In this document: piece after piece, positions 9,001 to 12,000 of the stretch
Layout: every line of letters begins with the position of its first letter
Position numbering within the stretch: position 1 is the stretch's first letter
Source of the DNA: a virus
Virus genome (UHGV): UHGV-0072395
Direction: 5' to 3' (one strand)
DNA: 21,112 nt
Program-made: the position numbers

Positions 9001-12000
9001 CGCCTGATCACTTCCGCCCCTCCGCACAGGGGGATTCACCACAACAGAAATTTAACACCCGACCAGTTCTATTTCAACACAATACGGCTCTGTAGCCGAA
9101 GGTACCCTGGCTGGGTCTAGTGCTGATTGACGGGAATCGAACCGCCAGCACCCTGCTTACAAGGCAGGCACTCTAACTGCTGAGCTAAACCAGCAAATTC
9201 CTGCAACACTCTCACAGTGACTGTGCCCATGCCCTTGGGTTGCTGCCGCATCATTGCCGCTTATAACCGGTGCGCGTGTGGCGTTCGCGCTACCTTACCG
9301 GCATACCCATTTCCTCGTTAACCCTAACCAGCGGTATATCGCAGTTCGGACCTGCGTCTGGCTCTCTTCTCGGAGACTCGGGGCCACATCATGACTGTGG
9401 CTTGCATAGGCGGTCTGACCGCTCTACAGCTTCATTTTCGCCACCCACTCTCGCCAGCGAGCATCCCTACCCTCAGGACTCAGGCGCTGATCGTCAAAAT
9501 GATTAGACAAGGTCAGCGAATCCGGCAGTAACGCCCAGGCAACATAGAATTCGTGGGGCTCAAATTCATCGCCAGCAAACTGATAAGCGCCAACATGATA
9601 GACCTCGCAATCTTCCTCAAGCGCAATAATGTGAGCGATATGCCAGCCATCACAGGGATTCAGGAGGATTACCCAGCGGCCTTCAAGGTCTTTGGTTAGC
9701 TTTTCGCTTGCTGGTCTGAAGATAAGGGTTTCTGTTATCTGCTGGGACATTTCAGGCTCCAGAAACGACAAAAACCCCGCCGGAGCGAGGTTTTGATGAT
9801 TAAGCTGTGTGTCTAAGTGACCACTCTTAACAGGTTACGATAGTTTTTGCGTACGCGTTAGCTTTACTATATGTTTCAATATATGAAATTTCTTGCTCAC
9901 AGTTTCATTACACAGCAAACCATATATAAACTAATAATTTCAAGGTGATATTTATATGAGCGGATTCGCTTGTCAGGAATGCGGAAATGTTATAGACGAC
10001 ATCGAACAGAACTGCGAAGTTTGTGGCACAAGTCCCAATGTCGCAAGAATCGGAAACCAAAATTTCATGGTTGTCAATGCAATCACCGCTCATCTTGAGA
10101 AGGAGAAACTTTTTGATTATACAATTGGTCAGTTGTGGGATCTTACGACTCCAGTTGCTACGGAATTCATCACTAGAATTGAAAAAAAATTCCGACGGAA
10201 AAATAAATTCCATAACTATTTAGTCAAAGACAATCTGCCTAATTCAATACCTACGTTGCTATCAAAATTTAACGCAGGGACAATTATTTTTGAAAGCTTT
10301 TGCCAGACTGTAATGAACAAGCTAAAACTAAACTCTAATAACGAGACAGTTGTTTCGAAATTGGTTGGCGGAACGTTAGTGTTTGTACATTACAAATCTT
10401 TAAATGATGCAGATGATTTAGGAAAATTATTAATAGTAATGGTTGATAAACGTAGTGCCTTCGATTTTGAAGAGGGAAGTTTACAGCCTAAACGTCTTAA
10501 TCCAGTCAATACTGATGCTCTGCGCCAAGCCGCAATGTTTGATCTAACTTTGTTCGATGAAAGTTACCCAGATAACGACGGTCATTCCTATGTCGATTTC
10601 ATCCAAGGTAAATCCCAAAGTGATGTTTTCAAGGATTCGTTAGGCTGTACTCGAGATGTCGATAACAAGCGAAGTATTAATGAAATCTTTCGTGCTATAG
10701 AAGAGTTTGTTTCTTCAAATTCCTTAGGAAGAGCAGTTAGAGAAAATGCAGACATTGCCGTGAGAGATTTTCTTGACATTAAATCTAGAGATACTATTGA
10801 TAAATCTGTTAGCATTGATGAAGTCCAAGTTGTCATTGATAAATGTTTACCAAAAAAATCAAAATGCAAAGGAACTTTCAAAGATTTTGTCTATGAGAAT
10901 GAATTTAAAATAGACGCACAATTTGAACCCACTATATACTCTGCAAAACAGGCACTTACAATAAAGCTGACAGATGAAGACAAAAATTTCGAAATTAAAA
11001 TACTGCGAGGTGCAATTGGGGATGAAAAATCTAACAAACCAGTTATAATAGGCAGTAGAAATAATGAGGTAATCATCCGACTTTCCCCAGACGAATTTAA
11101 TAAGTTAATAAAATATGCAAATGAACAATAGTGATAATTTTGATAGAATCGCTGTTTTAATTTCATCTTCTGATATTACATCAGAAGATGGATTTGTTGT
11201 AATCAAATGCCCACAAGCCTACAATAACCATGAAAAATTAAATATACAATCCTTATTCTCTGGAATCGGCTATCTTAAATCCGATAGAATTTTTGAAGGC
11301 GATAAAGATATCTGGTTGGATAAGAGAGCAAATTTTTGGAGCGATGGACAGTGTCCTTTTTTTTCTAATTTCGAAAACTTTTGGCAACGCGTAAATGGCG
11401 CGGACAAATTACCTGATTATTTTTATATTGTATCTGATAAAATATCCCATTTAGAAGCGAAGGATAATAAAACACTAAATATATTCAACTTGTATTTTAC
11501 CTGGAAACAAATCCTTCTTAATTTATCCGATCATTTCGCGAATGAGTTTTACGTTTTTTTCTTGATGAACGATAAAGGTGGGGATAAAATTGAAATAGAG
11601 TCAACGCTGAACTTCAATCAACTACCAAAAATTGACATGCCTGCTGATAGCCTCAGCATTGCTTACAATCTTATTCAGAAACTTGATTTTGAAGATCTAC
11701 ATAAGTTAGAGCGCCGTTCAGTTATGCGTGCAACTCTTTATGAATTAACAAAATCAATGAATAAGGATAGTAATCTATTAAAACCCCTTATGGAACAAAC
11801 CGTTACATTTAGCAAAAAATATAATGAGCTATATGAAATATATACCAAGCGATTTTCGGTAAATAAACTTCTTAACGAGCTGGATGAAAAAAGCTTAGAG
11901 TTTACATCAAAAATAAATGAATTTATTTCCTCAAGTCAAACAAAAGCACTTACGATACCAGGAGCATTAATTGCAGTAGGTGCGTTAGCCAAGGCCGATG

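Follow-up and report, generated by a model that had tools for sequence, protein, structure and literature searches.

What is a four-cysteine zinc ribbon doing at the head of a protein that otherwise resembles the Escherichia coli nucleoid-associated protein YejK, and why would a prophage carry it? The question is raised by a gene (gene A) of UHGV virus genome UHGV-0072395, analyzed here as a stretch of 21,112 nucleotides that we call the window. We find that gene A and the gene that follows it (gene B) are orthologous to the two genes of DS-1, an anti-phage system validated in E. coli. With a probability of roughly 0.8, we read the pair as a DS-1-orthologous anti-phage cassette that sits as a low-GC moron in the slot between the Q antiterminator gene and the lysis genes, that would act like the PANGU defense systems by analogy, and in which the ribbon serves as an accessory.

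Identity of the gene pair

Gene A is an ATG-started open reading frame (ORF) of 391 amino acids and the longest ORF at its site (Table 1), in agreement with the gene call of a first-pass annotation made from the DNA sequence. Gene B follows in the same orientation (+). The two overlap by 17 nt, or by 11 nt when B is counted from its second ATG (11121). A scan of the region returned 20 promoter-like sites against 14.3 expected from shuffled sequences, and the site at 9909-9938 upstream of the cassette was not significant alone.

Both proteins passed the NCBIfam models of the DS-1 families. Protein A scored 431.3 bits on the equivalog NF053868 (DS1_1_antiphage, nucleoid-associated anti-phage protein; cutoff 330, E=2.8e-129, residues 11-376) and protein B scored 371.6 bits on NF053869 (DS1_2_antiphage; cutoff 315, E=3.6e-111). 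Against the DS-1 protein sequences of Table S8 in PMC13092281, protein A shared 55% identity with DS-1A (WP_000355468.1) over 386 aa (E=1e-155) with all four cysteines aligned, and protein B shared 42% identity with DS-1B (WP_000150292.1), also over 386 aa (E=2e-94). By profile score and alignment, we classify both window proteins as equivalog-level members of the DS-1 families.

DS-1 was reported in the DefensePredictor study under the working id D390 (bioRxiv 2025; Science 2026, PMC13092281). The supplement gives its locus as E. coli NZ_RRVY01000002.1 220602-222994, encoding WP_000355468.1 (391 aa) and WP_000150292.1 (404 aa), with HHpred matches on the former to NA37 (residues 42-382) and to NinF/Zn_Beta_Ribbon (residues 3-26, 86% probability). 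The YejK nucleoid-associated domain was named among the domains newly validated in defense, and the legend of Fig. 3C includes "ZF, zinc finger"; the protein had already been drawn there as a zinc finger with YejK (PMC13092281). Cloned alone on a plasmid, DS-1 defended E. coli MG1655, with -log10 efficiency of plating (EOP) values of 7.6 for Bas1, 2.7 for Bas26, 1.7 for Bas3, 1.7 for T3, 1.0 for T5, and 0.9 for T7 in Table S7 (PMC13092281).

The window carries the same two genes in the same order as this E. coli locus, and DS-1A has the same 391-aa length and the same ribbon followed by NA37 as protein A. The E. coli pair also occupies the same prophage slot, convergent with Q, in the arrangement holin, A, B, Q. 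The two loci differ in spacing, with the E. coli genes 2 nt apart whereas those of the window overlap, and in carrier, an E. coli prophage versus a Klebsiella/Enterobacter-type prophage. The first-pass annotation had not recognized the fusion, which is component A of a published, experimentally validated system; the architecture, for which a curated NCBI equivalog model exists, was already known, and the remaining interest lies in the mechanism of DS-1 and in the comparison of the ribbon. Phage resistance is known from the E. coli orthologue and is predicted for the window cassette. Neither protein had a match in PADLOC-DB (2023), even at E up to 1. That library predates DS-1 and the null result therefore says nothing on function.

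Protein A and the NA37/YejK family

Pfam NA37 (PF04245) matched residues 63-375 of protein A with 84.5 bits (gathering score 24.6, E=1.2e-23), and a profile of 29 protein A homologues retrieved 9be2_A, the E. coli YejK chain of known structure, at E=4e-20. The AlphaFold2 model, built on the homologue alignment, had a mean predicted local distance difference test (pLDDT) score of 82.4 and a predicted template modeling (pTM) score of 0.71. Foldseek of this model against PDB matched 9be2 (E=2.2e-14, probability 1.00, template modeling scores 0.62/0.71, 367 columns) and gave no other match below E=0.3. The first-pass annotation had proposed an NdpA/YejK-like domain from two short motifs, NAITAHLEKEK and GGTLVFVHYKSL...LLIVMVDKRS, and both are present where it placed them (residues 41-51 and 138-167). 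Its proposal of the family holds as well: the PF04245 search, the profile search, and the structural model with its YejK-only Foldseek match all pointed to NA37/YejK, with a significant profile hit and a predicted fold related to that of YejK.

Protein A shares the two-domain fold of E. coli YejK/NdpA (9be2) at ~15% identity, including the C-terminal beta-hairpins and helix that correspond to the stable dimerization arm of YejK. Unlike YejK, it has an additional N-terminal zinc ribbon and is encoded together with a dedicated partner on a mobile element. We considered and rejected a housekeeping YejK orthologue (NCBIfam NF001557), because protein A scored 61.7 bits where the equivalog cutoff is 341. 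YejK is a dimeric, sequence-nonspecific clamp on double-stranded DNA (dsDNA) with an electropositive pore of 30 Å, a weak interface between its N-domains and a stable one between its C-domains (PMC11229321). By analogy, dsDNA binding by protein A is plausible.

Protein B, the predicted membrane effector

Protein B had no Pfam or PADLOC family, and its named matches were limited to DS1_2 and PHROG 5023; all 92 of the homologues found carry the annotation "hypothetical". A sub-threshold Pfam match to HEAT_GCN1 (E=0.021) was rejected. The AlphaFold2 model (pLDDT 86.1) consists of an alpha/beta N-terminal domain (~1-225) followed by long helices at residues 227-276, 278-291, 295-338, 344-394, and 396-413. 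Hydrophobic stretches fall at ~276-310 and 373-390, with a Kyte-Doolittle maximum of 1.69 over 19 residues. Across 30 B homologues, conservation was low in the N-terminal domain (0.26-0.55) and peaked at residues 241-285 (YTKRFSVNKLLNELDEKSLEFTSKINEFISSSQTKALTIPGALIA; 0.81-0.89), and P280, G281, A282, L283, I284, A285, and K291 were invariant. This pattern suggests a fast-evolving recognition domain joined to a conserved executioner module. The alpha-pore-forming toxins MakA, AhlB, ClyA, and SmhB were among the weak, non-significant Foldseek matches of the B model and were not relied on.

A perfect hairpin lies ~45 nt into gene B (Table 1) and could, speculatively, act as a brake on expression of the effector relative to the sensor. 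Inverted repeats also occur at the A/B junction of E. coli DS-1 (L012 9172-9210) and of a Pseudomonas aeruginosa pair (L008 7155-7189), with unconserved sequences.

Proposed mechanism by analogy to PANGU

In the PANGU systems, nucleoid-associated proteins (NAPs) resembling YejK are sensors that sit on the chromosome and come off when the host DNA is broken down by a phage; mutations that let T4 escape lie in denA (EndoII), a gene for a host-DNA endonuclease, and the released NAP binds the docking ('DMK') domain of its partner and activates it (bioRxiv 10.64898/2026.04.06.716658). Type II PANGU combines the YejK-like NAP Pag2A with Pag2B, an effector that begins with a DMK domain and ends in a transmembrane (TM) domain. 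Defense takes both genes and proceeds by abortive infection. When T4 infects, Pag2A-GFP moves off the nucleoid; on its own, the DMK domain binds Pag2A with a dissociation constant (KD) of 19 nM (10.64898/2026.04.06.716658).

The window pair has the architecture of type II PANGU, a two-gene operon of a YejK-like protein and a protein with an N-terminal globular and a predicted C-terminal membrane domain, and we adopted the PANGU mechanism by analogy because of it; type II PANGU is also the only mechanistic model available for such pairs of NAP and effector. Type I PANGU (Pag1A NAP and GRel toxSAS Pag1B) has a sensor of the same YejK-like superfamily as protein A and would follow a shared logic in which the sensor relocates and the effector is then activated. 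In type I, the effector is an alarmone synthetase that is soluble rather than membrane-bound, with no homology to protein B in the family scans.

Under this model, protein A would dimerize into a sequence-nonspecific clamp on the host chromosome, and an infecting phage that degrades or remodels the nucleoid would release it. Released A would bind the N-terminal domain of B and so activate the membrane module of B, which would kill or arrest the infected cell before progeny are made, an abortive infection. T5 and T7/T3 degrade host DNA, which would be compatible with the published phage range of DS-1. The first-pass annotation had considered a nucleoid-associated fold a plausible sensor of invading DNA or RNA. 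The sensor role agrees with that reported for the YejK-like PANGU proteins, but the reported cue is a different one, loss of binding to the host chromosome after phage-induced genome degradation. The architecture and distant homology that tie DS-1 to the PANGU model of NAP sensors give DS-1 a testable mechanism.

Several points weigh against this reading. DNA binding by protein A is no more than plausible, because only two of the six basic positions of YejK whose mutation (R173/R176/K177 or R276/R280/K284) impairs DNA binding (PMC11229321) are basic in protein A (K219 and K331). This count comes from a hidden Markov model (HMM) alignment to 9be2, in which chain numbering equals native YejK numbering plus 3; the position of R176 lies within a deletion of 3 residues, and S220, I327, and T335 occupy the remaining three. 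Other basic residues could line the pore of protein A. The acidic character of B's N-terminal domain is only mild (net -8 over 230 or 270 aa, with pI 5.0 for residues 1-230 and otherwise 5.1-5.2), which is weaker than the label 'DNA mimic' would have it. Membrane insertion of B is predicted from hydrophobicity only, and the B model had no significant Foldseek match in PDB (best E=0.41). PMC13092281 gives no mechanism for DS-1, and no tests of single genes or Cys mutants were found in its main text or in the supplement passages searched. The part of Table S7 that was read has no T4 row for DS-1, whereas assays of type II PANGU used T4 and Bas34. With identities of 55% and 42%, the window pair may have a phage range other than that of E. 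coli DS-1. The link from DS-1 to type II PANGU is an analogy drawn from architecture and from distant homology to an E. coli pair also found in strain UPEC85, and the text of the PANGU preprint gives no accession or sequence for PANGU-Ecu and does not mention DS-1 or a zinc ribbon (10.64898/2026.04.06.716658).

A two-gene overlapping operon with a membrane protein in second place would also suit a classical toxin-antitoxin system, in which B is a membrane toxin restrained by A and infection depletes A, as many abortive-infection systems act. We consider this quite unlikely, since in the PANGU systems neither gene alone is toxic and the NAP is an activator rather than an antitoxin (10.64898/2026.04.06.716658), and at 391 aa protein A is a large, well-folded protein, which labile antitoxins are not.

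The zinc ribbon across homologues

Protein A begins with MSGFACQECGNVIDDIEQNCEVCGTSP..., which contains the CxxC-x11-CxxC ribbon that the first-pass annotation had read at the N-terminus. The spacing of the cysteines is conserved in homologues, and the four Cys are found even in homologues with as little as ~33% overall identity, among intervening residues that vary freely. Pfam zinc-ribbon models matched weakly (DZR E=0.044, Zn_Ribbon_1 E=0.074) and the first 35 residues were modeled at low confidence (pLDDT ~57-66), so the call of a zinc ribbon rests mainly on cysteine conservation. Residues 1-35 have a net charge of -4 and an isoelectric point (pI) of 4.05.

Among 119 clusters of protein A homologues, 51 had the four-Cys motif, 48 as CxxC-x11-CxxC and three distant ones as CxxC-x10-CxC. 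The ribbon was present in every full-length Enterobacterales homologue. A Pseudomonas clade (~40% identity) had a Cys-free tail of ~26 residues in its place, and a Vibrio/Proteus/Marinomonas clade (363 aa) was without any N-terminal extension. In a neighbor-joining tree of the NA37 part, the ribbon state changed at least three times, and two further apparent changes were mis-called start codons. In 50 clusters with the ribbon form, the ~35-residue extension had a mean net charge of -4.5 (range -9 to -2); in 25 clusters with the Cys-free tail the mean was -4.8.

The partner gene was retained with or without the ribbon. In P. aeruginosa (L008), a ribbon-less A is followed directly by a B homologue with 35% identity, also with a 17-nt overlap, and in Proteus mirabilis (L010) a ribbon-less A precedes a B homologue with 28% identity, next to an AbiEi gene and an insertion sequence (IS). 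Deep-branching ribbon-bearing members also appear to keep B (P0092/P0178, longest contig 53,056 bp in both; P0094/P0201, 47,570 bp). The pair, with A ahead of B, persists in Enterobacterales, Pseudomonas, and Proteus. The ribbon-less, acidic-tailed P. aeruginosa pair (L008/L009 6001-8422) adjoins filamentous-phage genes (Zot, DUF2523), which suggests that it is carried at the edge of a Pf-type prophage.

We rejected the ribbon as a DNA or RNA reader: a nucleic-acid-binding element is unlikely because the ribbon is acidic and is missing from whole clades that keep the partner gene. A regulatory add-on fits better, because the extension is acidic both as ribbon and as Cys-free tail and is absent in a third clade. 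The ribbon is most likely an acidic, clade-specific accessory that tunes A through autoinhibition or partner contacts. The more specific proposal that the N-terminal extension is an acidic module gating the DNA pore of the clamp, or competing with the docking domain of the partner, and thereby setting the trigger threshold of the effector, is tentative and has the odds against it; a variant that makes the ribbon a second sensor, binding a phage protein, is less likely again. That the ribbon is acidic, clade-specific, and dispensable for the A-B pairing is the one result that may go beyond the DS-1 and PANGU papers, and it indicates the mutants and natural variants that experiments should compare.

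The pairing also bears on whether protein A is instead a prophage-encoded nucleoid-associated regulator, like NdpA2 of PAPI-1, that shapes prophage or host transcription or topology, with defense not its main role and B an unrelated membrane protein. NA37 proteins are known as classical NAPs; YejK, for one, modulates both topoisomerase IV and gyrase (PMC11229321), an NdpA2 paralogue controls transfer of an integrative and conjugative element (ICE) (PMC8565334), and PHROG 3767, to which gene A belongs, is filed under DNA, RNA and nucleotide metabolism. However, the anti-phage activity of the orthologous transcription unit has been validated in E. coli (PMC13092281), genes A and B overlap or lie next to each other and are inherited together in distant genera and on different mobile elements, and protein A falls far below the cutoff of the YejK equivalog. 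We rate a regulator of this kind as marginally less probable than a toxin-antitoxin system, and retain the DS-1-type defense cassette as our reading of the pair.

Prophage context and mobility

The window is a lambdoid prophage on the minus strand. On its left lie genes for terminase, portal, and lysis, on its right those for replication and methylases. The A-B cassette lies on the strand opposite the late operon, between Q and the lysis genes, and has a GC content of 33-35% versus ~50% in its flanks. This places the validated but mechanistically unexplored DS-1 in a Klebsiella-type prophage, in the classic moron slot, with relevance for phage-therapy host range in Klebsiella and Enterobacter.

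Table 1 Positions of the cassette, its parts, and neighboring features in the window
Feature	Position	Strand	Details and basis
Gene A, DS-1A orthologue, ribbon + NA37/YejK-like domain, predicted sensor	9956-11131	+	NF053868, Pfam NA37, PHROG 3767
Zinc ribbon CxxC-x11-CxxC, residues 6-24, CQECGNVIDDIEQNCEVCG	9971-10027	+	Cys conservation; lies within acidic extension (residues 1-36)
NA37/YejK-like two-domain fold, residues ~37-388	10064-11119	+	AlphaFold2 secondary structure; Foldseek vs 9be2
Gene B, DS-1B orthologue, 417 aa (415 aa from ATG 11121), predicted membrane effector	11115-12368	+	NF053869, PHROG 5023
Variable alpha/beta N-terminal domain of B, residues ~1-225, putative docking domain for A	11121-11795	+	AlphaFold2, charge, low conservation; analogy to the DMK domain of Pag2B
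Amphipathic helix leading into hydrophobic helical hairpin, most conserved part of B (YTKRFSVNKLLNELDEK...QTKALTIPGALIAVGALAK...LEAIIIIAGLWMI)	11841-12056	+	Conservation; Kyte-Doolittle
Second hydrophobic segment of B (LASMMFWGGVVYLIV)	12237-12296	+	Hydrophobicity; AlphaFold2 model
Promoter-like TACACA-18-AATAAT	9909-9938	+	5' of cassette; weak consensus match
Shine-Dalgarno-like AAGGTGA	9942-9948	+	7 nt 5' of gene A ATG; sequence inspection
Perfect 13-bp hairpin, then T-rich stretch, ~45 nt into gene B	11162-11192	+	116-nt fold z=-2.96
Inverted repeat CCCCATG-AGTGA-CATGGGG, 7 bp, GC-rich, over gene B stop codon	12361-12379		Sequence inspection; between convergent B and Q, 10 nt from Q
Q antiterminator gene, convergent with cassette	12389-12736	-	PHROG 79; Pfam Phage_antitermQ on identical loci
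DUF968/HNH gene	12753-13814	-	Prophage context
Two holin genes opening the lysis cassette	7428-7814 and 7160-7441	-	PHROG 198, 217; Pfam Phage_holin_8, Phage_holin_3_7
Endolysin gene	6587-7066	-	Prophage context

An identical protein A was found in the same cassette arrangement on the 22 assembly contigs examined. The closest named homologues of protein A were from Klebsiella oxytoca (98%) and Enterobacter species (92%), and the nearest deposited phage was Klebsiella phage Kp4866-6, with 87.7% identity over 44% of the window. In 50,697 deposited phage genomes, tblastn with protein A gave only four distant NA37 matches, in Pseudomonas phages at 22-28% identity; a close DS-1A occurs in no isolated phage of this collection. 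When 8000-13000 was compared by megablast with complete E. coli genomes, the Q and DUF968 flank matched and the cassette did not; this comparison pointed to the distant E. coli sibling pair described below. We looked for an empty Q-to-holin site in Klebsiella phages Kp4866-6 and 5 LV-2017, and insertion boundaries could not be drawn because the Q and lysis modules of these phages differ.

The slot itself recurs. E. coli DS-1 (L012) is arranged as holin, A, B, Q, and DUF968, with the coding regions of B and Q overlapping by 21 nt. In another E. coli genome (L007 3615-5986, NZ_CP180609.1; also strain UPEC85), an NA37 protein of 382 aa and a 408-aa partner with hydrophobic C-terminal segments occupy the same prophage slot, convergent with Q. 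This pair is without a zinc ribbon, shares 22% and 25% identity with window A and B, and scored 98.6 and 100 bits on the DS-1 models, below the cutoffs; it is a sibling system, possibly of the type II PANGU lineage. Since E. coli DS-1 and this distant pair share the slot, the Q-to-lysis position is a hotspot that exchanges one broad superfamily of NA37 proteins and partners.

Control of prophage lysis or of superinfection exclusion, with B as a holin-, antiholin-, or Sie-like membrane protein and A as its regulator, is the least probable of the alternatives: the position between Q and the holins, the hydrophobic helices of B, and the alpha-pore-forming toxins among its weak Foldseek neighbors speak for it, but the cassette is on the strand opposite the late operon and foreign in GC content, homologous pairs occur in P. 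aeruginosa (beside a Pf-type prophage) and Proteus (AbiEi gene, IS) with no lysis cassette nearby, and the E. coli orthologue defended MG1655 as a lone plasmid clone.

Between the cassette and the holins, on the strand of the late operon, are a tRNA-Thr (anticodon UGU) at 9120-9194 (-) and a full-length Rfam match to the small RNA (sRNA) STnc100 at 8847-9071 (-; 90.1 bits, gathering score 47). The stretch 8001-9000 has 37% GC. An intrinsic-terminator-like hairpin, AAAACCTCGCTCCGGCGGGGTTTT, with a T-rich tail lies at 9771-9794 (-), again on the late-operon strand and a short way past the start of gene A. This hairpin may be the tR'-type terminator overridden by Q, which would put the late promoter within the 160 nt shared with the promoter region of the cassette; a consensus scan of the minus strand at 9795-9955 found no late promoter PR'. 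Directly downstream of the hairpin is a 115-aa ORF at 9424-9771 (-) that belongs to PHROG 17248 (unknown function, E=7e-59) and is kept in all contigs with the identical cassette. Two large DNA methyltransferase-type genes are found in the early region at 16145-19175 (-), a 713-aa ORF with a weak PF00145 match on homologous loci and a 316-aa Dam-family ORF, and they are probably anti-restriction functions of the prophage.

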